A DNA stretch of 64,000 nt, taken from positions 31,908 to 95,907 of the forward strand of contig DAOTTD010000185.1 in NCBI GenBank assembly GCA_034438015.1, written 5' to 3'. This DNA comes from Ktedonobacteraceae bacterium (GTDB lineage: Bacteria > Chloroflexota > Ktedonobacteria > Ktedonobacterales > Ktedonobacteraceae). Both the position numbers and the translations under genes were made by a program. The notes under the pieces were generated by a model that saw only the letters and a list, made by a program, of their open reading frames with translations, was not told where the DNA came from and made no database searches. Shown piece by piece: positions 44,809-63,878 of the stretch; positions within the stretch are counted from its first letter, which is position 1, and each line of letters starts with the position of its first letter.

Positions 44809-47154
44809 ATGGAAGCGGTCTCGACGCTGCAACGCCGGCGTATCCTCATTCAAGGTATCGTACAGGGCGTGGGCTTCCGGCCCTTCGTCTACGGACAGGC
44901 GCACCACTACGGCCTGTGCGGCTTTGTGTTGAACGACAGCACCGGCGTCACCATCGAAGTCGAGGGGTCTATGACGGATCTCGACGCGTTCCAGCACGCA
45001 TTGACTGAGAAGGCACCGCTCCTGGCGCGCATCGACACGCTGGCCGTCGAGCAGATACCCCTATGCCTCGATACATCCTTCGTCATCGCGCACAGCCAGA
45101 GCAGCAGTGAGCGCCTGGCGCTGATCTCGCCCGATACCTCGACATGCGCCGACTGCCTGCATGAGCTCTTCGATCCCACCGACCGCCGCTACCACTACCC
45201 GTTTATCAACTGCACCAACTGCGGGCCACGCTTCACCATTGTACAGGGCGTGCCCTACGACCGGGCCAACACCACCATGAGCGTCTTCCCACTGTGCCCG
45301 GATTGCCAGGCCGAATACGATGATCCGCTCAGCAGGCGCTTTCACGCTCAACCGAATGCCTGTCCCATATGCGGTCCACAGATGCAACTGCTCGCCCAGG
45401 ACGGAGCGCCCATCGCCAGCGCCGATCCCATCGCCGCCGCCGCACAGCGATTAGCAGATGGGCAAATTCTAGCAGTGAAGGGCCTGGGAGGGTATCACCT
45501 GGTCTGCGACGCGCGCAACGAAGATGCAGTGGGACAGTTGCGGAGCCGCAAGCGCCGCGAGGCCAGACCCTTTGCGTTGATGGTTCCCGATCTAGAAACG
45601 GCGCGGCAGCTCTGTACAATCAGCGCAGACGAGGCAAAGCTCCTGCAATCGTACCGGCGCCCCATCGTCTTACTACAACAGACGTCTGACCGTTCGGTAG
45701 CACCATCGGTAGCGCCAGAACATAACACACTGGGAATTATGTTACCTTACGCACCGTTCCATTATCTGCTCCTGCATGCGTTCTCGCGCTGCATGGGCCA
45801 GGGGCGTCCGGCGGCGCTGGTCATGACCAGCGGCAATGTGAGCGACGAGCCGATAGCGTACCGCGACGAAGATGCACTCGCGCGTCTCGCGACCATCGCC
45901 GATGCCTTCCTGACGCACAACCGCGCGATCCATATGCGCTGCGACGACACGGTGATGCGCGCGGCGGCCCACGGAGAACAGTTCTTCCGACGGTCGCGCG
46001 GTTATGCGCCAGAGCCGCTCTCGCTACCACACGAATGTCCCGTTCCTGTGCTGGCCTGCGGCGGACACCTCAAGAACACGTTCTGCCTCGGTAAGAGCAG
46101 GCAGGCGTTTCTCAGCCATCACATCGGCGACCTGGACAATCTGGAGACGCTCATCTCGTTCCGCGAGGGGATAGAACATTATAAAGATCTCTTTGGCATC
46201 GCGCCCCAGGTCATAGCGCACGACCTGCACCCTGAATATCTGGCGACCAAATATGCTCTCGACGCGGCTATCCCCTATAAGATCGGCGTGCAGCACCATC
46301 ATGCGCATATCGCCAGCGTCATCGCTGAGCACGGTCTGGAAGGACCGGTGATTGGGGTAGCGGCTGACGGCACAGGCTATGGCACGGACGGCGCGGTGTG
46401 GGGCTGCGAGGTGATGGTCGCCGACCTGGAGGATTTTCAACGCGTGGCGCATCTCGCATACGTGCCGCTGCCGGGCGGTGAGCAGGCGATCCGCCAGCCG
46501 TGGCGCATGGCCGCCGTCTACCTCGCGCAGGCATACGGCGACGACTTTCTTGCACTGGACATACCCTTTGTGGAGCAGATGGACCAGAGACGCTGGCACA
46601 CGCTTGCCCAGATGATAGCACGCTCCATGAATACGCCGCCCACCTCCAGCCTTGGACGCCTGTTTGATGCCGTCGCCGTACTGCTGGGTATAACGGCGAT
46701 CGGCGCGCAACCGGAGCGCGAGAACCAGCTTTACGAGGGGCAGGCCGCGATCGAGATGGAGATGCGCGCCGCCGCGCTAACCGGCGCTATGGAGAGCTAT
46801 CCCTTCGCGCTGCACGCGGGCAGCCCTGCGCAGCTCGACGTACAGCCGCTAATACGCGCCATCGTCCAGGACATCCAGCGCGGCATCCCTGCCGCACAGA
46901 TCGCCGCAAGATTTCACTATTCGATCGCGCAACTGCTCGCGGAGGCGTGTACGCAGACGCGCGAGCGCACACAGATACACAGCGTTGCACTAAGTGGAGG
47001 AGTATTTCAGAATCGCCTGTTGCTTGAACAACTCACCTTGCAGCTTGCACGACAGGGCTTCCAGGTCTACACCAACCGGCGCGTCCCGCCGAACGATGGT
47101 GGATTGAGCCTGGGGCAACTGGCAGTAGCAGCGGCGCTCATGAGGCAGGACTGA
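44809..47154 (+). CDS. hypF: Carbamoyltransferase HypF
   Basis: Acylphosphatase domain (IQGIVQGVGFRPFV), two zinc-finger pairs (CADC...CTNCGPR; CPDC...CPICGP), YrdC-like and Kae1-like domains. Confidence 0.95.
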   Translation: MEAVSTLQRRRILIQGIVQGVGFRPFVYGQAHHYGLCGFVLNDSTGVTIEVEGSMTDLDAFQHALTEKAPLLARIDTLAVEQIPLCLDTSFVIAHSQSSSERLALISPDTSTCADCLHELFDPTDRRYHYPFINCTNCGPRFTIVQGVPYDRANTTMSVFPLCPDCQAEYDDPLSRRFHAQPNACPICGPQMQLLAQDGAPIASADPIAAAAQRLADGQILAVKGLGGYHLVCDARNEDAVGQLRSRKRREARPFALMVPDLETARQLCTISADEAKLLQSYRRPIVLLQQTSDRSVAPSVAPEHNTLGIMLPYAPFHYLLLHAFSRCMGQGRPAALVMTSGNVSDEPIAYRDEDALARLATIADAFLTHNRAIHMRCDDTVMRAAAHGEQFFRRSRGYAPEPLSLPHECPVPVLACGGHLKNTFCLGKSRQAFLSHHIGDLDNLETLISFREGIEHYKDLFGIAPQVIAHDLHPEYLATKYALDAAIPYKIGVQHHHAHIASVIAEHGLEGPVIGVAADGTGYGTDGAVWGCEVMVADLEDFQRVAHLAYVPLPGGEQAIRQPWRMAAVYLAQAYGDDFLALDIPFVEQMDQRRWHTLAQMIARSMNTPPTSSLGRLFDAVAVLLGITAIGAQPERENQLYEGQAAIEMEMRAAALTGAMESYPFALHAGSPAQLDVQPLIRAIVQDIQRGIPAAQIAARFHYSIAQLLAEACTQTRERTQIHSVALSGGVFQNRLLLEQLTLQLARQGFQVYTNRRVPPNDGGLSLGQLAVAAALMRQD

Positions 47155-47214
47155 CGAGTTCCACCAATGCGATGTTGTCATAAACGTCGTATTTTCAATG
47201 ACGAGGAGGGTATC

Positions 47215-47487
47215 ATGTGTTTAGGCATTCCGGGTCAGATCGTAGAGATCGTAGATGAGACCTATGACATCGCAAAGGTCGAGGTTTCCGGAATCAAACG
47301 CAACATCAGCATCGCCCTGGTGCGACCGGACGGCATCGGGCCGGGCGACTGGGTGCTGGTCCACGTAGGCTTCGCTATGAGCAAGATCGACGAGAAGGAG
47401 GCGCACGACACACTGCAGGCACTCCAGTTAATGGGCGATCCCTACAGAGACGAGATGGAGATGTTGCACAGCAGTCAGATTGAGTGA
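47215..47487 (+). CDS. hypC: Hydrogenase assembly chaperone HypC
   Basis: MCLGIPGQIVEI with the essential Cys2. ATG at 47215 follows GAGGAGGG. Confidence 0.9.
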   Translation: MCLGIPGQIVEIVDETYDIAKVEVSGIKRNISIALVRPDGIGPGDWVLVHVGFAMSKIDEKEAHDTLQALQLMGDPYRDEMEMLHSSQIE

Positions 47488-47508
47488 CGCTGGAAAGAGA
47501 GAAGGGCG

Positions 47509-48117
47509 ATGGCTGCTGATACCAACGCGCTGCAACAACGGCTCACAGCGCGCTTCACACAGAGTATTGAGGTACCAAAGACGTTCTTCGCGGCGGAGGC
47601 GGAGCAGATAGCACAGGCGTGCTGGTCGATGGCGCGGCGCTTCCACCAGGGAGGCAGGCTGCTGGCATTCGGCAGCGGGTCCTGGGCGACCGACGCGCAG
47701 CACGTCGCAGTCGAGTTCGTCCATCCCGTCATCGTTGGCAAGCGGGCACTCCCTGCACTCGCGCTAACCAATGATAGCGCCACGCTCAGCGGCTCACTCG
47801 CCAGCAGAGAGAGCCACGAGTTCTTCAGCAGACAGTTGCAGGTGCTGGCACGGTCCCAGGATATCGCGCTGGGCTTCTCGCAGGATGGAAACGATGCGGC
47901 AGTGCTGGCGGCGCTTGACGTGGCGCGCAGGATGGGTCTACTCACGCTGGGACTGAGCGGAGGCGAAGGTGGTCAGATCACGCAGATGACGGTCGATTTC
48001 CGCTTCATCGTGCAGGCGAACGATCCGTTGGTGATACAGGAGACGCACGAGACGCTCTACCACATCCTGTGGGAACTTGTACATATTTTCTTTGAGCATG
48101 AAGGGATGTTGCGATGA
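47509..48117 (+). CDS. SIS-domain protein (GmhA/phosphoheptose-isomerase-like), copy 1
   Basis: GGRLLAFGSGSWATDAQHVAVEF, LPALALTNDSA, GLLTLGLSGGEGG. Confidence 0.75.
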   Translation: MAADTNALQQRLTARFTQSIEVPKTFFAAEAEQIAQACWSMARRFHQGGRLLAFGSGSWATDAQHVAVEFVHPVIVGKRALPALALTNDSATLSGSLASRESHEFFSRQLQVLARSQDIALGFSQDGNDAAVLAALDVARRMGLLTLGLSGGEGGQITQMTVDFRFIVQANDPLVIQETHETLYHILWELVHIFFEHEGMLR

Positions 48118-48425
48118 TGAATAGTAAAGCTCCGTATTCGGCTGCTAACGACGCTGCGCGTCTACCTACGGTCAAGCAGCCGCAAGGTAGTAATCCATTC
48201 GCCTGTATGCTTGACGAAGAGGGACACTGCATCACCTGTTCGGACGAGGCGCTCTCCGTGAAGGTGTTGCTCGTCGATCGGGAGACGGAGATGGCGCGCG
48301 TGGAAGTGCAGGGCAAAGAAGAGGAGGTAGACATCACGCTGATCGAGAACGTACGGCCCGGCGATATCTTGCTGGTGCACGGCGGCGTCGCCATCGCCTG
48401 CACAGAGGGAAACGGCGATGAATAG
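48114..48425 (+). CDS. HypC/HupF-family chaperone-like protein (second copy, N-terminally extended)
   Basis: HCITCSDEALSVKVL...GDILLVHGGVAIA. 4-nt overlap with the upstream gene and 8-nt overlap with the downstream gene. Confidence 0.7.
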   Translation: MMNSKAPYSAANDAARLPTVKQPQGSNPFACMLDEEGHCITCSDEALSVKVLLVDRETEMARVEVQGKEEEVDITLIENVRPGDILLVHGGVAIACTEGNGDE

Positions 48426-49092
48426 CGAGGGATCGGAGTACGACCGGCTCTTCTACCCATACCTTTTCGAGGGCGGTCAGGTCAGCACCGAGGAGGTACT
48501 GGCACAGGTGCGGCACTCGATACTGGAGAAGTGCGCCGAGATCGTCGAACTCCGGCGCGTCGTGCTTGAGCGGTCAGGTCCGCAGATCATCGCCGTTGGG
48601 CGCGCAATGGCACGGGCCTTCGCCTCCGGCGCGACGCTGCTGGCCTTCGGGAACGGCGGCAGCACTACCGACGCGCAGGACATCGTGACCGAACTGCTGC
48701 GCCCGCCGTTTCCCTCCTGGTCGCCGCTACCGGCGATCGCGCTGACCAACGACAGCGCCGTCATCACAGCGGTAGGCAACGACGTTGGCTTCGAGAATAT
48801 CTATGCACGCCAGGTGATCGCCTTCGGCAAACCAGGCGACATCGCGCTGGGCATCTCGACCAGCGGCAACTCAGCGAATATTCTGTTTACCTTCGAGCAG
48901 GCTAAGAAGCAGGGATTGCTGACGATAGGACTGGCCGGGTACGATGGCGGGAAGATGGCACGTTCTGCTGCCGTTGACTACTGCATCACCACGGCTGGCG
49001 ATCATATTCCGCGCCTCCAGGAGGTGCAGGCGACCACATATCACGCGCTGCTGGAGATCGTGCAGCTTTTGTTACAAGAGGATAAATTATAG
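48418..49092 (+). CDS. SIS-domain protein (GmhA-like), copy 2
   Basis: GATLLAFGNGGSTTDAQDIVTEL, LPAIALTNDSAVITAVGND, GISTSGNSANI, GLLTIGLAGYDGG. Confidence 0.75.
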   Translation: MNSEGSEYDRLFYPYLFEGGQVSTEEVLAQVRHSILEKCAEIVELRRVVLERSGPQIIAVGRAMARAFASGATLLAFGNGGSTTDAQDIVTELLRPPFPSWSPLPAIALTNDSAVITAVGNDVGFENIYARQVIAFGKPGDIALGISTSGNSANILFTFEQAKKQGLLTIGLAGYDGGKMARSAAVDYCITTAGDHIPRLQEVQATTYHALLEIVQLLLQEDKL

Positions 49093-49137
49093 CAAACCGA
49101 GAGTTATGTGCAGTCTGACGCGCAAGGAGCAAATGCG

Positions 49138-50289
49138 ATGAAATATGTCGATGAATACCGGGATTCAGACCTGGCGCGTTCCATCTCAACAGAGATCGCG
49201 CGCCTTAGCAACGGACGCAGTATCAAATTGATGGAGGTCTGCGGAGGGCACACGCACACCATCTACAAGCACGGCATCGAGGATGTCCTGCCCCCCAATA
49301 TCGACCTCGTGCACGGGCCCGGCTGCCCGGTCTGCGTGCTCCCAATGGGGCGCATCGACGACGCCATCGCCATTGCGCATACCGAGAACGTCATCTTCAC
49401 CACCTTCGGCGACATGATGCGCGTCCCCGGCTCACACGGCAGCCTGCTCGACGCCAAGGCTGAGGGTGCCGACGTGCGCTTCGTCTACTCGCCGCTCGAC
49501 GCGCTCAAGATCGCGCACCAGAACCCCGATCGCCAGGTGGTATTTTTCGCCATCGGCTTCGAGACCACGGCTCCATCCACCGCCGTTACCCTGCTACGCG
49601 CGCAGGCGGAGAAGATTAAGAACTTCTCCATCTTCTGCAACCACGTCACCATCATACCCGCGATCAAGGCTATTCTGGACTCGCCCGACCTGCGCCTGGA
49701 CGGCTTTCTTGGGCCGGGACATGTGAGCATGGTGATCGGCATGCGACCGTACACATTTATCGCGCGCGACCACCACAAGCCCATCGTCATCGCAGGCTTC
49801 GAGCCGCTCGACATTATCCAGACGACGTACATGGTCGTCAAGCAGCTCAGCGAAGGGCGGGCCGAAGTCGAAAACCAGTACGCGCGCGTCGTGCGGGCAG
49901 AGGGCAACGTCAAAGCCCTGGAGGCGATGGCACGCACGATGGAGCTGCGTCCCTTCTTCGAGTGGCGCGGGCTGGGCTTCATCACGCACAGCGCACTGAA
50001 GCTACGCCCGGAGTTCGCGCCGTGGGACGCCGAGCTGCGCTTCGAGGTGCCGGGCCTGCGCGTCGCCGATCCCAAAGCCTGCCAGTGTGGAGAAGTGCTC
50101 AAGGGCGTTATCAAGCCGTGGGAGTGCAAGGTCTTCGGCACTGCCTGCACGCCGGAGACGCCGATCGGCACTTGCATGGTCTCGCCGGAGGGGGCCTGCG
50201 CCGCCTACTTCAGTTACGGACGCTTCTCGATGGCATCCGAACGCTCGCGGCTGAACATTCTGCCGGTCACGCAGGCAAGGGAGGCTTAG
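49138..50289 (+). CDS. hypD: Hydrogenase maturation protein HypD
   Basis: MKYVDEYRD, EVCGGHTH, GPGCPVCV, C-terminal Cys cluster. ATG at 49138 follows AAGGAG. Confidence 0.95.
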   Translation: MKYVDEYRDSDLARSISTEIARLSNGRSIKLMEVCGGHTHTIYKHGIEDVLPPNIDLVHGPGCPVCVLPMGRIDDAIAIAHTENVIFTTFGDMMRVPGSHGSLLDAKAEGADVRFVYSPLDALKIAHQNPDRQVVFFAIGFETTAPSTAVTLLRAQAEKIKNFSIFCNHVTIIPAIKAILDSPDLRLDGFLGPGHVSMVIGMRPYTFIARDHHKPIVIAGFEPLDIIQTTYMVVKQLSEGRAEVENQYARVVRAEGNVKALEAMARTMELRPFFEWRGLGFITHSALKLRPEFAPWDAELRFEVPGLRVADPKACQCGEVLKGVIKPWECKVFGTACTPETPIGTCMVSPEGACAAYFSYGRFSMASERSRLNILPVTQAREA

Positions 50290-50346
50290 CGCTTCCCGGC
50301 CATGTCAAGGTGATGCATGGTTTTAAAAGATAGGACGGAGGACTTT

Positions 50347-51441
50347 ATGGAGAGACAGGACGCGCGCGTCGACGAGGTACTGAACAAGATCGAGCGCACA
50401 CGGCAGGCGCGGCGCAACAAATTCTATCTGCGCGACGAGCATATCACGCTCAGTCATGGCAGCGGCGGCAAGGCGACACACAACCTGATCGAGGGCGTCT
50501 TCGCGCCCGCCTTCTCCAACCCGATACTCGACCAGATGGACGACTCGGCGCGGCTGGAGATCTCCGGTGCGCGCCTCGCCTTCACTACCGACACCTACGT
50601 CGTCAGCCCGCTCTTCTTTCCAGGCGGCGACATTGGCAAGCTCGCCGTACATGGCACGATCAACGATCTCGCAATGGCGGGTGCCGAGCCGCTGTATCTC
50701 TCCGCTGGCTTCATCTTAGAGGAGGGCTTCCCCATCGCCGACCTGAAGCGCATCGTCACCTCGATGGCACTGGCGGCGAAAGAGGCTGGCGTCTCCATCG
50801 TCACCGGTGACACCAAGGTCGTGCAGCGCGGCAAAGCGGACGGTCTGTTTATCAACACGGCGGGCATCGGTCTCATACGCAACGCAGCGGTAGCGGGACA
50901 GGTCCAGGTGCAGCCGGGCGACCGGGTGCTGTTGAGCGGACCCGTCGGGGACCACGGCATCGCCATCATGCTGGCGCGCGACGAGCTCGACATCGAGACG
51001 AGCGTTGTGAGCGACACGGCACCGCTGCATACGCTGGTGGCGCACCTGCTGGCGGCGGTCGGAGACGGTGTGCGCTGCCTGAAGGACCCCACACGCGGCG
51101 GCGTCGCAACCACACTCAACGAGATCGCCCTGAGCTCCGAAGTCTCCATTGCCCTCGACGAACGGGCCATCCCCATCCACGCCGAAGTCAGGGGTGCCTG
51201 CGAGATACTGGGCCTGGACCCCTTGACGATCGCCAACGAGGGCAAGTTACTAGCCATCGTCAGGCCGGAGGCCGAGCGGGAAGCCCTGGCGGCGCTGCGC
51301 AGTCATCCGCTGGGACGCGAGGCCGCGCTGATCGGTACGGTGCAGGCCCAGCCGCCGGGGATGGTCTTCTTACGCACCGATATCGGGGGAACGCGAGTTC
51401 TGGATATGTTAGTGGGCGATCCTCTGCCACGCATATGTTAA
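50347..51441 (+). CDS. hypE: Hydrogenase maturation protein HypE
   Basis: SHGSGGK, AIR-synthase-like fold motifs, C-terminal PRIC. Confidence 0.95.
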   Translation: MERQDARVDEVLNKIERTRQARRNKFYLRDEHITLSHGSGGKATHNLIEGVFAPAFSNPILDQMDDSARLEISGARLAFTTDTYVVSPLFFPGGDIGKLAVHGTINDLAMAGAEPLYLSAGFILEEGFPIADLKRIVTSMALAAKEAGVSIVTGDTKVVQRGKADGLFINTAGIGLIRNAAVAGQVQVQPGDRVLLSGPVGDHGIAIMLARDELDIETSVVSDTAPLHTLVAHLLAAVGDGVRCLKDPTRGGVATTLNEIALSSEVSIALDERAIPIHAEVRGACEILGLDPLTIANEGKLLAIVRPEAEREALAALRSHPLGREAALIGTVQAQPPGMVFLRTDIGGTRVLDMLVGDPLPRIC

Positions 51442-54204: not shown

Positions 54205-55377
54205 ATGGGTGCTTTTCAGAGGCTCTCGATCACAAAACAGAGTTCGACGCGTGATATTCTGTGGTTGTTTATTGCTACGCGCATTGTGCTCATCATTATT
54301 ACATATATCGCTTATATTCTGCTCACGGCACCTAAATACTCAAGTACGCCGGTGGATGTCGTTGCCCTGTTCACGACCTGGAACCGCTGGGACGCCGCTA
54401 ATTATGTAAGGATCGCGCAGTACGGCTACGAGCAGCGGGTCGACCTGGCCTTCTTTCCGCTCTTTCCCCTGCTCGTCAGCGCGATCGGGCACGTGCTGGG
54501 CAGTTGGAGCTACTTGCTCGCCGGAACGCTGATCAGCAACGGAGCACTACTGGGCGTGCTCTTCCTGCTCTATAGGCTGGCGACCGATGCGTTCGACGCG
54601 ACGACGGCGCAGCGCACGCTACTCTACCTGTGCATCTTTCCCACAGCGCTCTTCTTTTTCGCGGCCTACAACGAATCGCTATATCTCCTGTTCACGGTGG
54701 GGGCGTTTCTGGCATTGCAGAGGCAGCGGTGGGGGCTGGCTGGCTGGCTGGGCCTGCTGGCGTCGCTCACACGCTCGGTGGGTATTCTGTTCGTTATCCC
54801 TTATCTCTATGAATTGTGGGTGACGCGGGAGCAGGTGCTCACGAACGTACGCAGCTTCGTGATTAGCGTGTTGCCTGTCGCTCTGATTCCCCTGGGAACG
54901 GCGCTCTACGGCATCTACTGCTGGATAACGGTCGGCGATCCACTGGCGTTCGTCCATGTGCAGCAGCATTCGGGCCGTTACCTGGCGTGGCCCTGGCAGG
55001 GGATCTGGCAGGCGACTACGGCACTGCTGATCGAACCACAGGCGTTCGGCTCCTCCAACCAGGCACACCTGCTGCTCGATCTGGCAGCGACGCTCGGTTT
55101 TATCGCGTTGGTGATTGTGGGCTGGCGCAGACAGCGTATGAGCTACAACCTGTGGATGTGCTTCAATATTGTCTACATCCTGCTCTATCCGGCCCTGGAT
55201 AAGCCCGATATCCTGCTCTCCAATCAGCGCTTCGTGCTGGAACTGTTCCCGGCGTTTTTGACGCTGGCGCTGCTCGGCATACAGAAGCCACGCCTGCATC
55301 AGGCGCTGGTCCTGATCTTCCCCACGCTCCTGGCGGTCTTGAGCATCGCATTTTTGATGAATCGTTGGATCGTGTAG
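54205..55377 (+). CDS. GT-C membrane mannosyltransferase-like protein (PIG-V/GT76-like), tandem copy 1
   Basis: WNRWDAANYVRIAQYGY...AFFPLFPLL motif. About 9 TM helices. Confidence 0.55.
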   Translation: MGAFQRLSITKQSSTRDILWLFIATRIVLIIITYIAYILLTAPKYSSTPVDVVALFTTWNRWDAANYVRIAQYGYEQRVDLAFFPLFPLLVSAIGHVLGSWSYLLAGTLISNGALLGVLFLLYRLATDAFDATTAQRTLLYLCIFPTALFFFAAYNESLYLLFTVGAFLALQRQRWGLAGWLGLLASLTRSVGILFVIPYLYELWVTREQVLTNVRSFVISVLPVALIPLGTALYGIYCWITVGDPLAFVHVQQHSGRYLAWPWQGIWQATTALLIEPQAFGSSNQAHLLLDLAATLGFIALVIVGWRRQRMSYNLWMCFNIVYILLYPALDKPDILLSNQRFVLELFPAFLTLALLGIQKPRLHQALVLIFPTLLAVLSIAFLMNRWIV

Positions 55378-55460
55378 CATGTATTCGTGCTCTTGACTTT
55401 CCATCCCTGACTCCACTAGAATAACCAGGAAAAACTTGAAGGTCATTTTGAAAGCTGGTC

Positions 55461-56603
55461 ATGAAACGTGCTCCAACCCGCGATATAATCTGGCTCTTTC
55501 TCGCGACGCGCCTGCTGCTGATGCTGGTGACGTACTTCGGCTATATTCTGCTGACCGCGAGCAAGTATTCGGGCGCACAGGTGAACCTGGCGGCATTCTT
55601 CTCCTCCTGGGATCACTGGGACGCGCAGCGATACCTGTCGATCGCACAATATGGCTATAAGACGCCGTTCGATTTTGCCTTTTTTCCGCTCTTCCCGCTT
55701 TTGACGGCGCTTCTCACGCCTCCACTGGGTAGTTGGAGCTATCTGTTCGTCGGGATGCTGATCAGCAATGGGGCGCTGCTGGGCATGCTGTTCGTGCTCT
55801 ACCAGCTTGCCGTGGATAGCGGCGGCGAGCAGGTGGCACGGCGGACGCTGCTGTATCTGTGCATTTTCCCCACGGCGTTCTTCTTTTTCGTGGCCTACAA
55901 CGAGTCGTTATTTTTATTGTGCGTCACCGGAGCGTTTCTCGCGCTACGGCGGCAGCGCTGGTGGGTAGCGGGACTGCTCGGCCTCTTCGCCACTCTGACG
56001 CGCTCGGCGGGAATATTGCTGGTCATACCATATCTTTACGAACTGTGGCAGGCGCGCGAGAGCTTAGTGGTGAAAGGGCGCACGTTGGTGTTTGCCGTGG
56101 CGCCGATTGTGCTGATTCCGTTGGGCATACTCCTGTATAGCCTCTATTGCTGGAAGATGACGGGCAATCCACTGATATTCGCTTCGGTGCAGTATCACTG
56201 GGCGCGCCATCTCTCCTGGCCGTGGGTCGGCATCTGGCAGGCGCTCTTCGAGTTCTTCTGGAATCAGCCGTTTGGCTCATTTAATGAGGTCCACGTGCTG
56301 CTCGACCTCAGCGCGACGCTGGCTTTTATCACGCTGGCTATAGTGGGGAGGCGCCAGTTGCGCGGGAGTTATACGTTGTGGACGGGTTTTCTCCTGCTGT
56401 ACATAATTCTGACGCCGAGCATAGATCAGCACGATTCGCTGATCTCCAATCAGCGTTTTGTGTTGGAGATGTTCCCGGCATTCATTACGTTGGCGATGCT
56501 CGGTATACAGAGGCCACGCCTGCACCAGGCATGTATGCTGCTCTTTCCTCCCCTACTCGCCACGCTCAGTCTGCTCTTTGTAATGAACCGTTGGATGGTA
56601 TGA
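55461..56603 (+). CDS. GT-C membrane mannosyltransferase-like protein (PIG-V/GT76-like), tandem copy 2
   Basis: Collinear paralog of 54205-55377 (WDHWDAQRYLSIAQYGY...AFFPLFPLL; RTLLYLCIFPTAFFFF; NQRFVLEMFPAF). Confidence 0.55.
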   Translation: MKRAPTRDIIWLFLATRLLLMLVTYFGYILLTASKYSGAQVNLAAFFSSWDHWDAQRYLSIAQYGYKTPFDFAFFPLFPLLTALLTPPLGSWSYLFVGMLISNGALLGMLFVLYQLAVDSGGEQVARRTLLYLCIFPTAFFFFVAYNESLFLLCVTGAFLALRRQRWWVAGLLGLFATLTRSAGILLVIPYLYELWQARESLVVKGRTLVFAVAPIVLIPLGILLYSLYCWKMTGNPLIFASVQYHWARHLSWPWVGIWQALFEFFWNQPFGSFNEVHVLLDLSATLAFITLAIVGRRQLRGSYTLWTGFLLLYIILTPSIDQHDSLISNQRFVLEMFPAFITLAMLGIQRPRLHQACMLLFPPLLATLSLLFVMNRWMV

Positions 56604-56609
56604 AAGTTT

Positions 56610-58340
56610 ATGGCACAAAAAATTTCAGGAGCTATTCCTGCATCAAATGGTGAAAGATTGCACACAAAGCGCTCTAATGCGGACACGGGGATGATATTCT
56701 ATACGCTGGCCTTTGTCCTGTGTGTCCTGATCAGTGTCACGCCGCTTAACCGCCTGGCGGGTACGACTTTTCTGCTGGCACTCCCAACCAATACGTTGCT
56801 TATCGACGTGGGGACGTGGTTGCCGATCGACCTCGGCTTCAGCGCTCATGCTCGTGACTCGCAGCTCACGACGCATACCGTTCTGCTGCTCACGCTGGTA
56901 GCGCTGGCCTTTCTGATCTACGGATTGTGCGCCCGGTATATACAGCGACGCCCGCAGCAGGATAGCTACAGGCGTATCCTGGGACTGATCTGGATCGGGA
57001 CAATTAGCGCGGGACTGGTCTTTCTCCTGACGCCGGGTATGCTCTCGCACGATGCATTCGTTTACGCGGGTTATGGTCGTGTGCTCGCCGTACATGGGGC
57101 CAACCCTTACTTTGTGCCACTCACCAATTTTCCGCGCGATCCACTGATACCGTTCGATGACTGGAGCAATGCACCAGCCGCGTATGGTCCGCTCTGGCTA
57201 CTCATCTGCACGCTATGCTCCCTCTTTGCGGGGAGTGACCCTTTACACTACCTGCTGATCTACCGCGCGCTTGGATTAGCGGCGCATCTCCTGAACGCGC
57301 TCCTGGTCATGATGATTTTGCGCAAGATGGAATGCTCGTCGCGCACGGTTGCGCTGGGAACGCTGCTCTACGCGTGGAATCCGCTCGCGCTGCTGGAGAG
57401 CAGCCAGGGAGGGCATAATGACACGTTTATGGTAACGATGATCCTGTTGGGCATGTTCTTCTGCGTACAGGCAGAACGCAGGAAGATCAGGCATTTTTCA
57501 GATCTGCGCTACTATCTGCTGGCAATCATCGCCTTTACGCTGGCAACCCTGGTCAAGTTCACGGCTGCTCCGTTGATCGTCTTCTTGCTGGTATGGATCG
57601 CTCGCCAGACGCTCTACTCTGCGGCAAACAGTGACCTGCCGGTGAGGCGGCTGGAGTGGCGTCGTGCATCGTTAGCGGTTGTGGTGGGAGCTTTTCTCAG
57701 CGGGGCGCTGGCATTAGCATTTTACGCACCATTCTGGATCGGACACAGTATTCCTGCGATCGTGAGAAGCTTCACCTCGCCGCCGTCCGCGTATCAAGCG
57801 TATGGCTCCATTCTGTTCGCCATCATCAAATGGATAGGGGTTTACGGTCTTCCCACACAGGGATGGATGGCGCGTGTGCTGTTCGTGCTGAGTCTGCACA
57901 GCACCTGGAGCGCGCTCAATCTGCTGGTTGTGGTCGTTACGATGGGCGTGGGCGGTCTATGGTTGTGGCGCGTTCCGACAACACGCACGCTGGCGCTCGC
58001 CAGCCTCAGCGTACTGGGCGCGCTCCTCATCGTGACGCCCTGGTTCTTCCCCTGGTACGTGATCTGGCTGGTCGGCCTCGCCGCGCTCTGCGTACCTTAT
58101 GATCGCGTAGGGAGAGCGCTGGTAGGCGCGACGCTCGCGTTCTCAGCATCGGCATTCTGCATCTACCTCTACGCGCGCGGCATCCCACCGCTGGGGTCCT
58201 GGATCGGACTCACATTTCTCACCACGATCGGTCTCCCTATAGTTGTGTTGCTGGCGCTGCTGTTCTTTCCGCGCTTGCATAATGCCCTTGGGAGGCTCAT
58301 CCGCTATCTTGGTAAAGTTCGTTTGATTGGTAAAACATGA
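56610..58340 (+). CDS. Polytopic GT-C glycosyltransferase-like protein (MptA/MptB-like)
   Basis: SHDAFVYAGYGRVLAVHGANPY...APAAYGPLW loop motif. More than 12 TM helices. The start may be an internal Met at 56691. Confidence 0.5.
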   Translation: MAQKISGAIPASNGERLHTKRSNADTGMIFYTLAFVLCVLISVTPLNRLAGTTFLLALPTNTLLIDVGTWLPIDLGFSAHARDSQLTTHTVLLLTLVALAFLIYGLCARYIQRRPQQDSYRRILGLIWIGTISAGLVFLLTPGMLSHDAFVYAGYGRVLAVHGANPYFVPLTNFPRDPLIPFDDWSNAPAAYGPLWLLICTLCSLFAGSDPLHYLLIYRALGLAAHLLNALLVMMILRKMECSSRTVALGTLLYAWNPLALLESSQGGHNDTFMVTMILLGMFFCVQAERRKIRHFSDLRYYLLAIIAFTLATLVKFTAAPLIVFLLVWIARQTLYSAANSDLPVRRLEWRRASLAVVVGAFLSGALALAFYAPFWIGHSIPAIVRSFTSPPSAYQAYGSILFAIIKWIGVYGLPTQGWMARVLFVLSLHSTWSALNLLVVVVTMGVGGLWLWRVPTTRTLALASLSVLGALLIVTPWFFPWYVIWLVGLAALCVPYDRVGRALVGATLAFSASAFCIYLYARGIPPLGSWIGLTFLTTIGLPIVVLLALLFFPRLHNALGRLIRYLGKVRLIGKT

Positions 58341-58410
58341 TTACCATGTCAGTCCAGGTGGATCGGGACAGCCCACCTGATCCTGCCGCCTTAACGCCGA
58401 CATTTACACG

Positions 58411-59853
58411 CTATGAATCAGAGATCGCCTCAACCTCCCCAGGCTCCATCTTCTCTGGCACAGCCTTCCTGCGTACGCTGGAGATCAGGATGGCCAGGAC
58501 GAAGCCAAACAGGATGAAGTTGCGCAGCGTCGTTACGGGGTAGAACCAGGGTACGGATGGAACGCCCATGATGGAGCCAGATGCAGACATATTATAGATA
58601 AACGGATAAATGAAGGTCGTCAAAGCGCCGATAGCGGCCCAGGGAACGATCCAGCGCAGATTGGAGCCGCCGATAGAGGCCACCAGCGGCACAACCCAGA
58701 TCAGATACTGCGGGCTAAACACCTTCCCCGTGACCATTACGATCAGCAGGGTCAGCAGCATAGAGGTAGAGAGTTCGATCTTCTTGCGCCATTGTAGCCA
58801 GTAGGTAAAGAGCAGGCCAGCAACCATCAATAGCGTCTCAATGAGCGAGATCGGTATGGAGTAGGCATGCAACATATTCAGGGAGCCGTATGTGAACATA
58901 TACGTGATGGGAGGAGACCCCAAGAAGTTCGAGAGCCAGATCAACGACGCCCCGAACGACTCCACCTGGATCGGGCGCGTCTGGAAGTAGCTGAGAGGCG
59001 CGATCGTCCCCTCGACATTCAGCAGCAAAGAAACGCCCATCACAATGATACACACACCAATAAACGTGGCCAGTGGCCGCCAGCGACGCCATGCGTACCA
59101 ACGCTCGCGCGAAGCGAGCTGCTGCGCAAACAGGAGCGGGATCAGCAAAGGGACAGGATAGAACTTGATCAAAAACGCCAGGGCCAGAGCGACAAAAGCC
59201 CAGACCCAGCGTCTCCGTTCGGCCAGGATCAACGTCGCCAGTGTGAGGAGCGACGGCACCAGATCAAAACGGCCCGCCGCCGTCGCCCAGCCACCGATCA
59301 CGAGCAGAACAGCGCCAGCGATAGCAGATCGGCGCGACTTAAAGCGCAGCAGGATGAAGTACATGGCGGCAGCAAGCAGTATCATCACTATAGCGAAGCT
59401 CACCTGATACCAGCCAGGCGGCGAGAGCAGCGCCAGGGTGAAAGGTATTAGAGCAAGCATTGGATATTCATGGGGCAGGGCGTGAAAGCTATCCGTGATG
59501 TCCTGCGTCACTACGAAGTTCACAAGCGCGTCCGGCGCATGATACTCATTGCGCAGGTTATCCGCGATCTGAGCATTCGTGTAGAATTGACCTTCAGTAT
59601 ACAAAATAAAGCCGCATTGCGACGCAGGATACGACTGCACAGCTGCCATACCATACAAGAAGGTAGAGGCATAGCACTGATATCTGGCTGCATCCGTATT
59701 GGTGTTAAAGATCTGCCACGAGGCGCCACAGTAGAGCAATATTCCCATCACTACTACGATAACAACATCCAACAGGTAGGGTGGTCGCTTATTCTTTGTT
59801 AGCCTGGACACAATAGTTTCTTTCGTGTCCTGTCCTTTTGTATCGATATTCAT
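58411..59853 (-). CDS. GT-C fold membrane glycosyltransferase-like protein (DUF2029/GT87-like); paralog of 34968-36389
   Basis: Shares conserved blocks with 34968-36389 (see that entry). Confidence 0.6.
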   Translation of the reverse strand: MNIDTKGQDTKETIVSRLTKNKRPPYLLDVVIVVVMGILLYCGASWQIFNTNTDAARYQCYASTFLYGMAAVQSYPASQCGFILYTEGQFYTNAQIADNLRNEYHAPDALVNFVVTQDITDSFHALPHEYPMLALIPFTLALLSPPGWYQVSFAIVMILLAAAMYFILLRFKSRRSAIAGAVLLVIGGWATAAGRFDLVPSLLTLATLILAERRRWVWAFVALALAFLIKFYPVPLLIPLLFAQQLASRERWYAWRRWRPLATFIGVCIIVMGVSLLLNVEGTIAPLSYFQTRPIQVESFGASLIWLSNFLGSPPITYMFTYGSLNMLHAYSIPISLIETLLMVAGLLFTYWLQWRKKIELSTSMLLTLLIVMVTGKVFSPQYLIWVVPLVASIGGSNLRWIVPWAAIGALTTFIYPFIYNMSASGSIMGVPSVPWFYPVTTLRNFILFGFVLAILISSVRRKAVPEKMEPGEVEAISDS

Positions 59854-60231
59854 CTATCGCATCTCATAAACATGGGCATCCTGTATACTTTTATTACGCG
59901 AGGCAGGGCAGGTTCATTCTTCTAGATCATATCCGCCAGACCCGACTACACGATCCACATTAACAGTATAAATTCACGTACAAAACCGATCGCAGGGGAC
60001 AGTATAGAGACGTCTCGCGCAGCCTGTCAAGGAACCTCCGAAAAAATACATACTTTTATGTATGCAAAACTAACTACGTTCTCATATATAACGAGCCAAC
60101 ATCGCTTATGATTTCATCATTTTAGTCCTAAAATCCCATGAGCCTGGCGGGCATGTGCGATACAATAGCTATATCGAGAAGAAAATGAGAGAACGAGATC
60201 ATATTCGACGGGCTTCTTCTACATTCTATTG

Positions 60232-61047
60232 ATGAACAGGGATCCGAGATCGGACGGGGACGGAAATCTTATGGAAAGACAACCAGAACAACAATTGACC
60301 GATAGACGAGAGATCAATTTTTCGAATGGAAATCGGGCCCAGGCGGTTCTAGCGCCCGTCGGCACTCAAACGGACGAACTGGCGTCCATGCTGGGCATGC
60401 TGGCGCCGAGGAACGCCATTCTCATCGCGGGAGGCGCTTCGGCGATGGACAAAGAGAGCGACGACAAACTTTTTCCGTTGCTCATGAATGGCGTCGTTCA
60501 TCCAGCGACCTCGCTCGGTGCCCTGATCATCGACGGCGGGACGCAGACGGGTGTGATGGCACTGATCGGTCTGGGGGTAGCGCAACAGCAACACAGGCCG
60601 CCACTGCTGGGAGTCGCGGCGGATGGCATGGTCCTCTATCCCGGCAAGACGACCGGCACGAGCACATATGCCGTCCCACTGGATCCCAACCACTCTCACT
60701 TTGTCCTTGTAGAGACTGATATATGGGGAGTGGAGACCGAAACAATGTACGAGTTGGTGCAATTTCTCTCGCGCGAGCATTCCTCAGTTGCTATTCTGGT
60801 CAACGGCGGTGAGATTGCCAGAAGAGAAGCATTGTATAATGTCCGCCAGGGGCGTCCACTGATCATCATCGAGGGAAGCGGTCGGGCAGCAGATGAGATT
60901 GCGCATGCCATGCGCAACGCAAAAGCCTCTTCATCCGATACTGAGCTTGCAGAGATCGTCGCAGATGGGAAGCTGCACCTCTTTCCCCTTACTGGCCCTG
61001 CAAAAGAGCTAGAGCAATTGACCTTGCATCTGCTTCAGCGGAGATAA
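60232..61047 (+). CDS. SLOG-superfamily protein, TRPM-like LSDAT type (predicted nucleotide-ligand sensor)
   Basis: Gly-rich Rossmann-like motifs ILIAGGASAMD, IIDGGTQTGVM, LVNGGEIARRE, LIIIEGSGRAADEIA. Assignment from motif memory, not an HMM search. Confidence 0.7.
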   Translation: MNRDPRSDGDGNLMERQPEQQLTDRREINFSNGNRAQAVLAPVGTQTDELASMLGMLAPRNAILIAGGASAMDKESDDKLFPLLMNGVVHPATSLGALIIDGGTQTGVMALIGLGVAQQQHRPPLLGVAADGMVLYPGKTTGTSTYAVPLDPNHSHFVLVETDIWGVETETMYELVQFLSREHSSVAILVNGGEIARREALYNVRQGRPLIIIEGSGRAADEIAHAMRNAKASSSDTELAEIVADGKLHLFPLTGPAKELEQLTLHLLQRR

Positions 61048-61072
61048 AATCATCAGTTCATGGAGGTTTGTA

Positions 61073-61582
61073 GTGAAACTATTCAAGCGCTTTCCAAATT
61101 TCCATCCGTTATCAGCAGAGGAGCCGTATATCGTCAAACCTGCTGCCAGAAGCGATTATCCTGCCTTTGCCGAAGATTTTATTACGCTCGATACAGAGCT
61201 GATGAAACAATTTCGTGAGCTTGATAACGAGGCACAACGCCGTCAGAACTGGTACCGCTGGATGTACATAATTCTGGTGCTCGGCGGAGCGCTCACCACT
61301 ATTCTACTCATTGTTCAGATAGCATTCATCTCGATTACCGGCTTCGATCTCGCCGGGGCGGTGCTCGCGGCTGTGTTGGGGACGGCCACAGCCATATCGC
61401 GCTCCTTTAAACATCATGAACACTACTTGAACGCCCGCCTGGCGGCTGAACGGCTGCGCAGTGAGTATTTCTTATTTCTTGGACATATTGGCCAGTACGC
61501 CGACGATCAACACCGCGTACAAAATCTGCGTTTTCGCGTGAACGAAATACACAAGGAGGGATTGTATGAGCCAGCGCGATAA
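61073..61582 (+). CDS. SLATT/DUF4231-like two-TM protein 1
   Basis: GTG start 6 nt after a GGAGG RBS. Central hairpin of two TM helices flanked by helical regions (QNWYRWMYIILVLGG...; ...YLNARLAAERLRSEYFLF). Confidence 0.65.
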   Translation: MKLFKRFPNFHPLSAEEPYIVKPAARSDYPAFAEDFITLDTELMKQFRELDNEAQRRQNWYRWMYIILVLGGALTTILLIVQIAFISITGFDLAGAVLAAVLGTATAISRSFKHHEHYLNARLAAERLRSEYFLFLGHIGQYADDQHRVQNLRFRVNEIHKEGLYEPAR

Positions 61583-62045
61583 TATTCAATTTCTCGCACT
61601 CTACAAAGCGTATCGTTACGAGGATCAGTTGCAATTCTACAAAAATCGGCACCAAGAGTTTGAGGCGGCAAACACACAGGCGGTTACAATAAGTATAGTG
61701 CTGATATTTCTCACGGCCCTTACAGCGGGAGTTGCATCTTCGACTAACATCTCCTGGTTGAAGCTGACCTGTTTACTGGTAGCGGCGATAAGCCCGATCC
61801 TCTCCAGCGCGCTGGCAGGATACAGCGCGTTATATGGCTTCGAACAGCAGGCAAAACTGTACCAGGACACGATGAATAATCTGTTGCAAACCAGTACTAA
61901 AGAGCCCGACCTGCAACAGGATCTCAGCGATACCAGCAGCGCTGAGAAGATAGATGAGTACGTTTACGAGATGGAGAATGTCCTGCTGGTAGAACAGGGG
62001 CAATGGGGACAGTTAGCCAGGGAGTTGAAGCCATCCGAGGCATAG
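61566..62045 (+). CDS. SLATT-like two-TM protein 2
   Basis: ATG follows AAGGAGGG and overlaps the upstream gene by 17 nt. Two TM helices (VTISIVLIFLTALTAGVASS; LKLTCLLVAAISPILSSALAGY) and a C-terminal acidic helical tail. Confidence 0.6.
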   Translation: MSQRDNIQFLALYKAYRYEDQLQFYKNRHQEFEAANTQAVTISIVLIFLTALTAGVASSTNISWLKLTCLLVAAISPILSSALAGYSALYGFEQQAKLYQDTMNNLLQTSTKEPDLQQDLSDTSSAEKIDEYVYEMENVLLVEQGQWGQLARELKPSEA

Positions 62046-62219: not shown

Positions 62220-63878
62220 ATGCAAGCATTGGAAGAAGGGCAGAGATTCGAACGCTATCGCGTGCAGCGTCGCCTGGGAAGCAGTGTGTCGGGGGCAAGT
62301 TACGAGGCCGAAGACACACTTTTGCAGCGCAAAGTGACCCTCAAGTTGATTCATCCCTGGGCGACGTTACAGGATGCGGCGCGGCGCCAGTTCTTTCGCG
62401 AGATGCAGGGTATCGGCGAACTGACTCATCCCTGCCTGGCAGCCGTCCTTGATTATGGAGAAGTTGATGGGCGGCTCTACATTGCGCGTCGTTATGTCAC
62501 GCCCGGCTCGCTGCTTGGCGACGAGGGAAGATACTGGTTTCAGCCGCCGTTGGACATTTCGCGTGCCGTTCACTGCACTTATCAACTTGCAGAGGCACTC
62601 CAGTATATCCATAACAATGGATTTCTCCATGGGTCATTGACTTTCGCGAATATTCTGGTGTTATGTGGCATTGGAGAAGACAACGACCCATTCCTGATCG
62701 CGGACGTCGGCACGACCCACTTTGTGCGCCGCTTCGGCCAGCTTCAGAGTGCTGTATTGCCGATCACAGCAGCGCCCGAACAGTTCGGCCAGCGCGTGAT
62801 GCCCGCCAGCGATCAATACGCGCTGGCAGTTATACTCTATTTCTGGCTGACCGGGTGCCTGCCTTTCCTGGGGACGCCGGAAGAGATCGAGCAGCTCAAG
62901 CTGACTGAGAAGCTCACGACGCTCACCTCATTGAATCTCAATATACCTCTTGAGCTGGAAGGCGTGATCAGACGTGCGCTGCGCGTCTATCCTGAAGAAC
63001 GCTATCCATCCATCCTGGCGTTCGCCGACGCGCTTCAGGCGTCGATCGCGCGCCTGGTTCCAACATCGCCATTGCCTGTCGCTAAAAAGCAAACTGAAGT
63101 TGTCCCGCACAGCATAGAGGCGACTCCGGAGCCTGCGATGCTCGATATTGCCGAAAGCGAGCAGATTGAACAGATATCGATAGCTTACAATCCAGTAAAC
63201 GAACCCATATTTGCACCCGTCCAACAGAACGGCGAGGAGGTTCTCAAGTGGCACGAGAATGCCAATGGGGCCACTCGCCAGCACGCATGGACGCACGACC
63301 AGGTTTTTCGCGATAGCCCGACATCGATCCTTGAACTCCTTTCCATGGGCGTGCTACCGCCTGAGCCGGTCCTGCGAGTAGATCAACCGACGCAACCAGC
63401 GCAGCCAATCATACCAGAGCCATCGGCACAACCCGAGACGCCAGTGGAGCCTGCACAAAATAGCGCGTCGTCGCTTTATCAAGATGTGGAAGAGGGCGAG
63501 GCAGAACTCGCTGTCGAGGAGGCATCAGGTCCACTACAGGCAAGCTTCGTCATCACATCGGTCTATATCGAGAGCTCGCAGGAGGTTGTTATAGAGCGCG
63601 CAGAAACAACGCTTGGCCGGGCAGGTTCAAGCGATATTCTGCTGGACCAGGGCGTCCTCACGTCGCGCCACCACGCGCTGCTGAAACAGGAGGGCGATCA
63701 CTACTTCATCTACGATCAGCGCAGCGCCAACGGAGTTATGGTCAACGGTGAGAAGATCGTCGACGAAACGGCGTATGAGATTAAAGATGGCGACCATATC
63801 GTTATTGGTGAATATGAGCTGGTCTTCCACCTCAAGCCGTCCAGCCAGGATGCCGCTGGTGCCCTCTATATCAGTTGA
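62220..63878 (+). CDS. Ser/Thr protein kinase-like (predicted pseudokinase) fused to a C-terminal FHA domain
   Basis: Kinase fold motifs present (VTLK, E in FFREM, DVG, APE), but the HRDLKPxN catalytic loop reads HGSLTFAN. FHA signature: LGRAGSSDILL...SRHHA...SANGVMVNG. Confidence 0.85.
   Translation: MQALEEGQRFERYRVQRRLGSSVSGASYEAEDTLLQRKVTLKLIHPWATLQDAARRQFFREMQGIGELTHPCLAAVLDYGEVDGRLYIARRYVTPGSLLGDEGRYWFQPPLDISRAVHCTYQLAEALQYIHNNGFLHGSLTFANILVLCGIGEDNDPFLIADVGTTHFVRRFGQLQSAVLPITAAPEQFGQRVMPASDQYALAVILYFWLTGCLPFLGTPEEIEQLKLTEKLTTLTSLNLNIPLELEGVIRRALRVYPEERYPSILAFADALQASIARLVPTSPLPVAKKQTEVVPHSIEATPEPAMLDIAESEQIEQISIAYNPVNEPIFAPVQQNGEEVLKWHENANGATRQHAWTHDQVFRDSPTSILELLSMGVLPPEPVLRVDQPTQPAQPIIPEPSAQPETPVEPAQNSASSLYQDVEEGEAELAVEEASGPLQASFVITSVYIESSQEVVIERAETTLGRAGSSDILLDQGVLTSRHHALLKQEGDHYFIYDQRSANGVMVNGEKIVDETAYEIKDGDHIVIGEYELVFHLKPSSQDAAGALYIS

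Follow-up and report, generated by a model that had tools for sequence, protein, structure and literature searches.

Systems that join an LSDAT protein, the SLOG domain found in TRPM channels, to SLATT membrane proteins were reportedly predicted by Burroughs and colleagues in 2015 from comparative genomics. The ADP-ribose-gating MHR1/2 head of the TRPM2 channel is derived from this bacterial LSDAT family. In this study, we analysed a stretch of 64,000 nt from a soil Ktedonobacteraceae bacterium (contig DAOTTD010000185.1, positions 31,908 to 95,907; the whole stretch is hereafter called the window), in which one such system is encoded by a cassette of three consecutive genes, LSDAT, SLATT-A and SLATT-B. 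The trio is one functional unit, and we lean, if only slightly, towards the view that it makes up a single machine, with LSDAT as a cytoplasmic sensor and SLATT-A and SLATT-B as a nucleotide-triggered, membrane-permeabilising part.

SLATT proteins have been predicted by the Aravind group to be nucleotide-responsive pore formers since 2015. The SLOG domain of the Thoeris protein ThsA binds 3′cADPR and the SLATT effector ThsH responds to cADPR (bioRxiv 10.64898/2025.12.03.692087); a SLATT protein is a required effector of DRT10 defence (DRT10 preprint), and SLATT effectors act in CBASS. In human TRPM2, the ADP-ribose (ADPR) site in the N-terminal MHR1/2 region has the mutationally validated residues M215, Y295, R302 and R358 (PMC6759353, PMC13060097). 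A previous examination of the window from its letters alone (the sequence-only reading) had described the present arrangement as experimentally uncharacterised. Our searches agree with this: the PDB holds no prokaryotic LSDAT structure and no matching SLATT, by sequence or by fold, and no structural or experimental paper on any prokaryotic LSDAT+SLATT system was found in a literature search that was itself incomplete and in which 'DUF4231' returned incidental mentions only.

The three genes and their products

The features of the cassette are as follows.

60271-61047, + strand: LSDAT gene, 258 amino acids (aa), soluble TRPM-type SLOG domain protein, predicted nucleotide sensor (Pfam, AlphaFold2 [AF2], Foldseek)
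61062-61066, + strand: GGAGG ribosome-binding site, 6 nt 5′ of the SLATT-A GTG start (read from the sequence)
61073-61582, + strand: SLATT-A gene, 169 aa, DUF4231-type SLATT with one two-transmembrane-helix (2-TM) hairpin and N- and C-terminal cytoplasmic helices (Pfam, NCBIfam, hydropathy, AF2)
61553-61560, + strand: AAGGAGGG ribosome-binding site within the SLATT-A 3′ end, 5 nt 5′ of the SLATT-B ATG (read from the sequence)
61566-62045, + strand: SLATT-B gene, 159 aa, SLATT_1-type, with one 2-TM hairpin and an acidic cytoplasmic tail (Pfam, NCBIfam, hydropathy)

All three genes are co-directional and translationally coupled. A 25-nt spacer separates the LSDAT stop (61047) from the SLATT-A GTG (61073), and the SLATT-A end (61582) and the SLATT-B ATG (61566) overlap by 17 nt. 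Three + strand open reading frames (ORFs) with these ends, tightly coupled through a gap with GGAGG and an overlap with AAGGAGGG, were what the sequence-only reading had proposed, and inspection of the sequence confirmed them. Its start for the first gene, ATG 60232, has to be revised: the ORF has a long form, 60229-61047 on the + strand, but the true start is almost certainly ATG 60271. The homologues are about 258 aa in length, which matches this start, and gene calls made independently on an identical locus (L099/L100) and on the orthologues also give a protein of 258 aa. In an alignment of the upstream region over four orthologous loci, ATG 60271 is kept, the position of ATG 60232 reads ATA, and a frame-breaking indel lies between the two. 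With the start at 60271, the upstream gap becomes about 417 bp, not about 375 bp as formerly given.

The LSDAT product is strongly assigned by profile and by fold. It matched Pfam LSDAT_prok (PF18171) with E=3.7e-51 (173.6 bits, cut-off 25.4), residues 64-259 (of 272) being aligned to positions 4-192 of the 195-position profile, as well as LSDAT_euk with E=6.3e-17 (62.3 bits, cut-off 25.7), and Kyte-Doolittle hydropathy revealed no hydrophobic segment in it. The four Gly-rich SLOG motifs noticed earlier are present in the translation; the loops (G54/G55, D88-G-G-T91, G94, G179/G180 and G202-S-G-R205..D208) are invariant or nearly so across the family. In the AF2 model (predicted local distance difference test [pLDDT] 89.6, predicted TM-score [pTM] 0.89, built on 47 homologues), the fold is a bilobed Rossmannoid like that of TRPM MHR1/2. 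The top 50 PDB matches of this model in Foldseek comprised 49 TRPM MHR1/2 chains and one 256-aa ciliary protein, with E in the range 1e-17 to 1e-14 (down to 7.7e-17) and a TM-score of 0.67-0.80 on the query. A sequence search of the PDB gave only eukaryotic TRPM channels above noise, the best being the choanoflagellate TRPM2 chanzyme (E=1.7e-10) and human TRPM2 (E=1.6e-8). The ciliary protein (PDB 9nw3 chain 6A, from the central pair at the ciliary tip) is matched over its whole length with E=1.4e-14 and a TM-score of 0.72 on both proteins, and thus free-standing LSDAT-like proteins occur in eukaryotes too.

Alignment of LSDAT to the native-numbered TRPM2 structure 6mix related the ADPR site of human TRPM2 (hsTRPM2) to LSDAT residues as follows.

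hsTRPM2 M215: LSDAT M96, retained
hsTRPM2 Y295: LSDAT W152, aromatic character retained
hsTRPM2 R302: LSDAT M159, not retained
hsTRPM2 R358: LSDAT R205, retained
hsTRPM2 T174-G175-G176 loop: LSDAT A53-G54-G55, glycines retained

Three of the four validated side chains are therefore kept if the Y295 position is counted as aromatic, and it is from these contacts that nucleotide binding by LSDAT is predicted. Conservation was counted over 123 cluster representatives of the family, 55 standalone and 68 fused. G94 and H141 are present in all 123, G54 in 121, D208 in 118 and M96 in 109; W152 is found in 113, with an aromatic residue in 121. High conservation of M96, W152, G54, G94, H141 and D208 is seen in standalone and fused forms alike. 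The cleft is thus under family-wide constraint, which fits a conserved small-molecule ligand that is ADP-ribose-like, although not necessarily ADP-ribose.

Both small proteins are SLATT proteins. SLATT-A matched Pfam DUF4231 (PF14015; E=8.4e-13, 49.1 bits, cut-off 24.7) and NCBIfam SLATT_1 (E=2.1e-16, 60.1 bits, cut-off 41), and SLATT-B matched Pfam SLATT_1 (PF18181; E=6.7e-9, 36.3 bits, cut-off 26.3) and NCBIfam SLATT_1 (E=4.7e-12, 46.0 bits, cut-off 41). Each has a single double-helix hydrophobic region on the Kyte-Doolittle scale, at about residues 61-109 in SLATT-A and 34-89 in SLATT-B. The AF2 model of SLATT-A (pLDDT 80.8) has helices at 30-84, 91-111, 114-136 and 148-165: the long helix 30-84 continues into TM1, 91-111 is TM2, and the last two are cytoplasmic. 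Basic residues stand at both ends of the SLATT-A hairpin, so by the positive-inside rule both of its termini are probably cytoplasmic, consistent with the N-terminal position of LSDAT in fused relatives. No significant similarity was found between SLATT-A and SLATT-B by BLASTP; they are therefore old paralogues rather than products of a recent duplication. The sequence-only reading had seen a TRPM-type SLOG/LSDAT protein followed by two SLATT proteins with two adjacent TM helices each; profile matches above cut-offs and the Foldseek matches to TRPM bear out the former, and hydropathy of both small proteins, together with the helical hairpin in the SLATT-A model, the latter.

Relatives, history and setting of the cassette

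A phmmer search with LSDAT against 1.84 billion representatives of 50%-identity clusters returned 1,641 relatives at E<=1e-3, of which 1,018 also passed a threshold of 1e-10 and 188 one of 1e-30. By size, the best 150 cluster representatives include 55 standalone proteins (230-330 aa), 68 chains of 550-780 aa and 20 intermediates. Pfam found LSDAT_prok in all 68 long chains, SLATT_1 in 67 and DUF4231 in 66, always single chains, and the domain order LSDAT, DUF4231, SLATT_1 is the gene order at the present locus. The trio's domains can thus be carried on one chain of about 600 aa. Partial fusions also occur, joining LSDAT to SLATT-A (P0248, P0339, P0348 and P0351) or SLATT-A to SLATT-B next to LSDAT (L086). 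Single-chain forms are found in developmentally complex bacteria, for example Archangium, and RefSeq names the fused relatives 'DUF4231 domain-containing protein'. The top-scoring representative, P0208 (1080 aa, JGI metagenome), has an unusual multi-sensor architecture, in which several tandem LSDAT-like stretches precede hydrophobic segments.

The neighbourhoods of 90 loci were surveyed, of which 56 are non-redundant at 95% identity in a sample biased towards the subfamily of the window. A SLATT pair (in one locus, a single SLATT) accompanies LSDAT in some arrangement in 24 of the 56. Our custom SLATT hidden Markov models were too narrow for divergent partners, and Pfam revealed some neighbours first scored as 'no SLATT' to be 8xMP, 2TM-TPR or TIR proteins. 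The non-redundant loci were distributed as follows.

10 loci: window-type cassette, LSDAT, then SLATT-A, then SLATT-B
4 loci: SLATT pair 5′ of LSDAT
8 loci: single-chain fusion
2 loci: SLATT on the opposite strand (fused pair in L086/L061, single in L008)
7 loci: LSDAT with a 396-aa 2TM-TPR protein
2 loci: LSDAT with an 8xMP (PF24838) membrane protein
2 loci: LSDAT with a TIR-domain protein
2 loci: LSDAT with a 230-aa unknown protein
1 locus: LSDAT adjoining an IS200 transposase fragment
3 loci: kinase-FHA homologue directly 5′ of LSDAT
10 loci: too short to judge; the remainder of the 56 were not assigned to any arrangement

The split cassette stays intact amid unrelated flanks in L006, L092, L015-L028 and L051/55; in L006 it lies between NB-ARC/HTH-TPR genes and a P450 gene, and in L092 it is 3′ of a two-component system. 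The coupling by a 25-nt gap and a 17-nt overlap is kept in orthologues. The synteny check proposed with the sequence-only reading thus came out in favour of an operon-like unit, the gene order being conserved in other genomes.

The survey also brought other partners of LSDAT to light. The second recurrent membrane partner, 3′ of seven non-redundant LSDAT genes, is a protein of 396-405 aa with two N-terminal hydrophobic helices followed by TPR repeats (L009/L010 6812-8011, L019, L032-34, L037, L040, L046, L054 and L074). A third, small one is the 'octameric membrane protein' 8xMP of about 165 aa (PF24838, E=1e-19 to 1e-21), found 3′ of LSDAT at L083 3136-3636 and L084 5784-6281. TIR_2 proteins adjoin standalone LSDAT in two lineages (L081 5923-7113, also L077 and L078; and L050 943-2064, − strand), of which one has a transposase and a serine recombinase on its flanks and the other a pentapeptide-repeat-TIR protein. 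The LSDAT+TIR arrangement is reminiscent of Thoeris and gives a hint of a ligand derived from NAD+. At L091 6326-8874, on a 2.1-Mb contig, a DUF4231+SLATT_1 pair close to that of the window has no LSDAT in front of it, and a frameshift disrupts its SLATT-A frame. In front of the pair lies an unannotated 434-aa protein, in which TIR-like motifs and CxxC pairs are seen by eye and for which Pfam gave no match, and around the pair are four TIR_2 genes, an NB-ARC gene, a caspase gene and a transposase gene.

The relatives belong to Ktedonobacteraceae (Chloroflexota) and stem from soil metagenomes and metagenome-assembled genomes. Orthologous loci (L005, L011-13 and L099) have the same flanks as the window, a GT87 gene upstream and a kinase-FHA gene downstream, followed in L005 and L099 by GalK/GalT. 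Protein identity between these loci and the window is 77-78% for LSDAT, 86% for SLATT-A and 78-82% for SLATT-B, and in the flanks 78% for GT87, 83% for the upstream GT-C gene (in L013 only) and 69% for the kinase. SLATT-A is thus more conserved than the flanking genes (86% versus 69-83%). Cassette and flanks have thus diverged to a similar degree: the cassette has long been inherited vertically, is under purifying selection and is not a recent arrival. In five more distant Ktedonobacterial genomes (L094-L098), the backbone is conserved and the slot between the GT87 and kinase genes holds a VTT/DedA-family gene in four and is empty in one; the cassette is thus an old, lineage-specific insertion or replacement.

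The sequence-only reading had called the operon AT-richer than its surroundings and possibly acquired horizontally. The first statement holds for the SLATT genes (GC content 0.50) and the upstream gap (0.43) but not for LSDAT, whose value of 0.56 equals the mean of the 64-kb window; GC at third codon positions (GC3) is 0.55-0.61 in the cassette genes versus 0.62 in the kinase gene. The second stands in the sense of an old insertion, given the state of the slot in the five related genomes, but the argument from composition is weak and the event was not recent. Recent horizontal transfer on the grounds of base composition was accordingly rejected, as the GC of LSDAT, the neighbour-like GC3 and the divergence in step with the flanks all oppose it.

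Two neighbouring features bear on expression and on possible partners of the cassette.

59854-60270, no strand assigned: AT-rich (GC 0.43) intergenic region, from which the GT87 gene (− strand) and the cassette diverge
62220-63878: Pkinase+FHA gene, 174 nt 3′ of the cassette

The intergenic region probably carries both promoters and a 5′ untranslated region of about 100 nt. A strong promoter-like site on the − strand, TTGACA-18-TATACT at 60030-60001, faces the GT87 gene; on the + strand, TACAAT at 60161-60166 corresponds to TATAAT in the orthologues, as read from the alignment and not from a match in the promoter scan. The region has 85% mean column identity across orthologous loci, with long invariant runs, and is as conserved as coding sequence; this exceeds what promoters alone would seem to need. 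An Rfam scan of the 417-bp gap found no family, the sole match being a chance-level snoRNA (E=0.7) inside SLATT-A. No terminator-like site was found at the operon end or in the upstream gap, and read-through from the cassette into the kinase gene is possible.

In the kinase-FHA protein, the canonical catalytic loop HRDLKxxN is replaced by HGSLT(F/L)(A/S)N, with Ser for Asp and Thr for Lys; each of the five aligned sequences shows this change, which suggests a pseudokinase or an atypical kinase. Homologues with 55-60% identity lie directly 5′ of LSDAT, amid different flanks and with no SLATT, in three non-redundant loci (L038/41, with L038 3195-4841; L056 3070-4841; and L073 581-904). By contrast, none of the five homologues sampled on long contigs has LSDAT in its vicinity and all five share the same glycosyltransferase backbone, and the kinase was therefore downgraded as a candidate fourth component. 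Of 8,000 candidates that were scored, 612 were kinase-FHA matches in Ktedonobacteraceae with E<=1e-30.

The window does not form a defence island and consists mostly of housekeeping genes. Genes for [NiFe]-hydrogenase maturation (HycI, HypB, HypF, HypC, HypD and HypE-like) are clustered at about 43070-51441; after them come the genes for adenylate kinase and isocitrate dehydrogenase and then four consecutive GT-C-type glycosyltransferase genes at 54205-59853 (two PIG-V-like, one that synteny with L097 marks as MptA/B-like, and GT87). The window also encodes a UvrD helicase and a tRNA synthetase, and IS200/IS605 elements lie at the far end. An IS200/IS605-type element at 54-1636 contains a TnpB gene (54-1181, − strand; OrfB_IS605 and a Cas12f1-like TNB domain, with strong PADLOC Cas12f matches), beside which a 151-aa ORF (1181-1636) probably encodes the one IS200 Y1 transposase of the window; a second TnpB-like ORF is present elsewhere in it. 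PADLOC matches across the window were generic: TnpB to Cas12f models, UvrD to GajB, a methylase, and the kinase to PD-T4-6.

Proposed mechanism and rival explanations

In the machine that we favour, two distinct SLATT 2-TM proteins, probably equal in number, would make up the membrane part. An ADP-ribose-class nucleotide would be bound in the cleft between the two LSDAT lobes; closure of the cleft would be relayed to the cytoplasmic helices of a SLATT-A/SLATT-B hetero-oligomer; the oligomer would then open or assemble as a membrane-permeabilising pore; and membrane depolarisation would follow, and after it growth arrest or death. Given that the operon has no signal-making enzyme, the ligand would have to come from elsewhere, that is, from an unlinked TIR-type or other enzyme, from an invader, or from NAD+ breakdown under stress.

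Several findings weigh against this proposal. Many close homologues of LSDAT have other partners (2TM-TPR, 8xMP or TIR) or none that was detected. The position equivalent to R302 is hydrophobic (M, L or I) almost everywhere in the LSDAT family, and R205 is present in 45 of the 55 standalone but in just 31 of the 68 fused forms; with the Arg lost in about half of the latter, the ligand may differ from ADPR. PDB searches by sequence profile and by fold gave no structural neighbour for SLATT-A (best Foldseek E=0.74), so pore formation on activation is predicted by analogy with other SLATT proteins. LSDAT matches no PADLOC model, and the SLATT proteins gave weak '2TM effector' matches only (CBASS model, E=2e-4 and 6e-4). 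No nucleotide-generating enzyme was found in the operon or in 14 individually scanned flanking genes, and the neighbourhood is one of housekeeping genes rather than a defence island. The role as a suicide effector in biological conflict that the sequence-only reading had adopted from the 2015 prediction gains no backing from the local context either, as the neighbours are hydrogenase-maturation, core-metabolism and glycosyltransferase genes and PADLOC has no LSDAT model.

The lack of a signal generator in the operon and the housekeeping setting leave room for a serious, if rather unlikely, rival, in which the trio is a reversible, non-lethal ligand-gated channel of normal physiology and not an abortive-infection or suicide effector. 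Like TRPM2, it might for example sense ADP-ribose or the breakdown of NAD+ during oxidative or metabolic stress. The stable chromosomal position among envelope and core-metabolism genes, the vertical inheritance with divergence in step with the flanks, the lack of a signal generator and of neighbouring defence genes, the pocket conserved with TRPM2 and the single-chain forms in developmentally complex bacteria such as Archangium would all suit such a channel. However, those SLATT proteins for which we found experimental data in the literature are all defence effectors, the swapping of LSDAT partners (SLATT, 2TM-TPR, 8xMP, TIR) amid changing flanks is typical of conflict systems, and the SLATT pair of L091 sits amid TIR, NB-ARC and caspase genes. 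A wider version of the channel idea, to which we likewise give a minor share of credence, would make the trio a true ligand-gated ion channel, in which a separate sensor is combined with a heteromeric 4-TM pore unit. Such a channel would be a bacterial counterpart of the ADP-ribose gating of TRPM2 on an unrelated pore; in multicellular bacteria of the Ktedonobacteria and Myxococcota it would serve reversible stress or developmental signalling rather than suicide, and there might be cross-talk with the pseudokinase-FHA protein.

The kinase is central to an improbable third explanation, namely that the membrane pair only anchors or regulates LSDAT and forms no pore, the trio being a signalling adaptor whose output runs via the neighbouring Ser/Thr (pseudo)kinase-FHA protein and the glycosyltransferase locus of the envelope. 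The short distance of 174 nt with no terminator-like site in it, the close homologues directly 5′ of LSDAT in L038/41, L056 and L073, and the altered catalytic loop, which suggests a pseudokinase scaffold, speak for it. Yet the five of five sampled kinase homologues that lack LSDAT indicate that the kinase is a backbone gene beside which the cassette inserted, most window-type cassettes elsewhere have no kinase, and kinase-FHA genes are so numerous in Ktedonobacteraceae that chance adjacency is plausible. That LSDAT is instead a LOG-like enzyme, processing a nucleotide and so making or destroying a signal, with the SLATT pair exporting or responding to the product, is decidedly improbable: its nearest relatives by sequence and fold are the non-catalytic, ligand-binding MHR1/2 regions of TRPM, its scores for LOG-type families are far under the cut-offs (14 bits against 26 and 107), and the retained residues are ADPR contacts in TRPM2. 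This is so even though the SLOG superfamily includes enzymes and a base-releasing activity has been predicted by the Aravind group for some SLOG/TIR-fold domains (PMC7159879), the acidic D208, called invariant (118 of 123 representatives), stands after the GSGR loop and H141 is invariant, and there are weak matches to the LOG-like families LDcluster4, TIGR00725 and 1rcu. Finally, we regard a recently acquired mobile defence island as very improbable. The AT-rich upstream gap, the lower GC of the SLATT genes and the absence of the cassette from the same slot in five related genomes could be read in this way, but LSDAT has the GC of the window mean and GC3 resembles that of the neighbours, orthologous loci at 77-86% protein identity with identical flanks indicate an old insertion, and there is no flanking integrase, transposase or repeat, the nearest insertion sequence elements being about 59 kb away; the 'recent' part of this explanation is thus already largely refuted.

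Comparison with known systems

Compared with the defence systems that use SLATT effectors, the cassette has the same kind of membrane protein but lacks their other parts. As in Thoeris type I ThsA (SIR2-SLOG) and type VII ThsH (SLATT), a SLOG domain would be the receptor of an ADPR-derived signal and a SLATT protein the signal-activated membrane effector, and TIR genes lie beside some LSDAT relatives. However, there is no TIR in the cassette or in the 14 scanned flanking genes, no PADLOC Thoeris model matched the three proteins, the SLOG domain belongs to the LSDAT rather than the ThsA clade, the sensor is a protein separate from the effector, and the latter consists of two divergent SLATTs. 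With the SLATT effectors of CBASS and DRT10 it shares a 2-TM SLATT, thought to breach the membrane when activated, and the weak PADLOC match to a CBASS '2TM effector'; it differs in having no CD-NTase/SMODS or reverse transcriptase partner in the operon and the flanking genes scanned, and in combining DUF4231 with SLATT_1, whereas DRT10 has SLATT_5.

Homology to TRPM MHR1/2 is seen in both sequence (E=1.7e-10 to 1.6e-8) and fold (TM-score 0.7-0.8). LSDAT keeps the GGA loop, the Met of GVM, the Arg of GSGR and the NHSHF motif, and its residue at the Y295 position is aromatic. Unlike the channels, it is a free-standing protein of 258 aa with no MHR3/4, no 6-TM TRP channel, no NUDT9H and a hydrophobic R302 equivalent; the membrane part belongs to an unrelated 2-TM family, and the alignments between LSDAT and TRPM cover MHR1/2 only.

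Closest of all are the LSDAT+SLATT systems of the 2015 prediction (PF18171, PF18181 and PF14015). All three proteins match these families above cut-offs, a SLOG sensor is joined to 2-TM SLATT proteins, and the order is that of the single-chain domains; the one difference is that the system is split here into three genes and is a single chain in 68 of the best 150 representatives, with otherwise nothing to distinguish the two. The arrangement is not unusual: it is the genomic context that defines the 2015 prediction as well as families already present in Pfam and NCBIfam, and the single-chain version is at least as common. What our study adds is a split three-gene member in Ktedonobacteria. The split form supplies the sensor as a free, soluble 258-aa protein with a confident model, which is a convenient entry point to the predicted system and makes the identity of the ligand, the driving of a 2-TM effector by a SLOG domain, and the choice between defence and physiology directly testable, and comparison of the fused, half-fused and split forms offers natural guidance on stoichiometry and interfaces. 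What is to be gained is not a new kind of system but mechanistic insight into a predicted one that has a direct evolutionary link to the gating of TRPM2.

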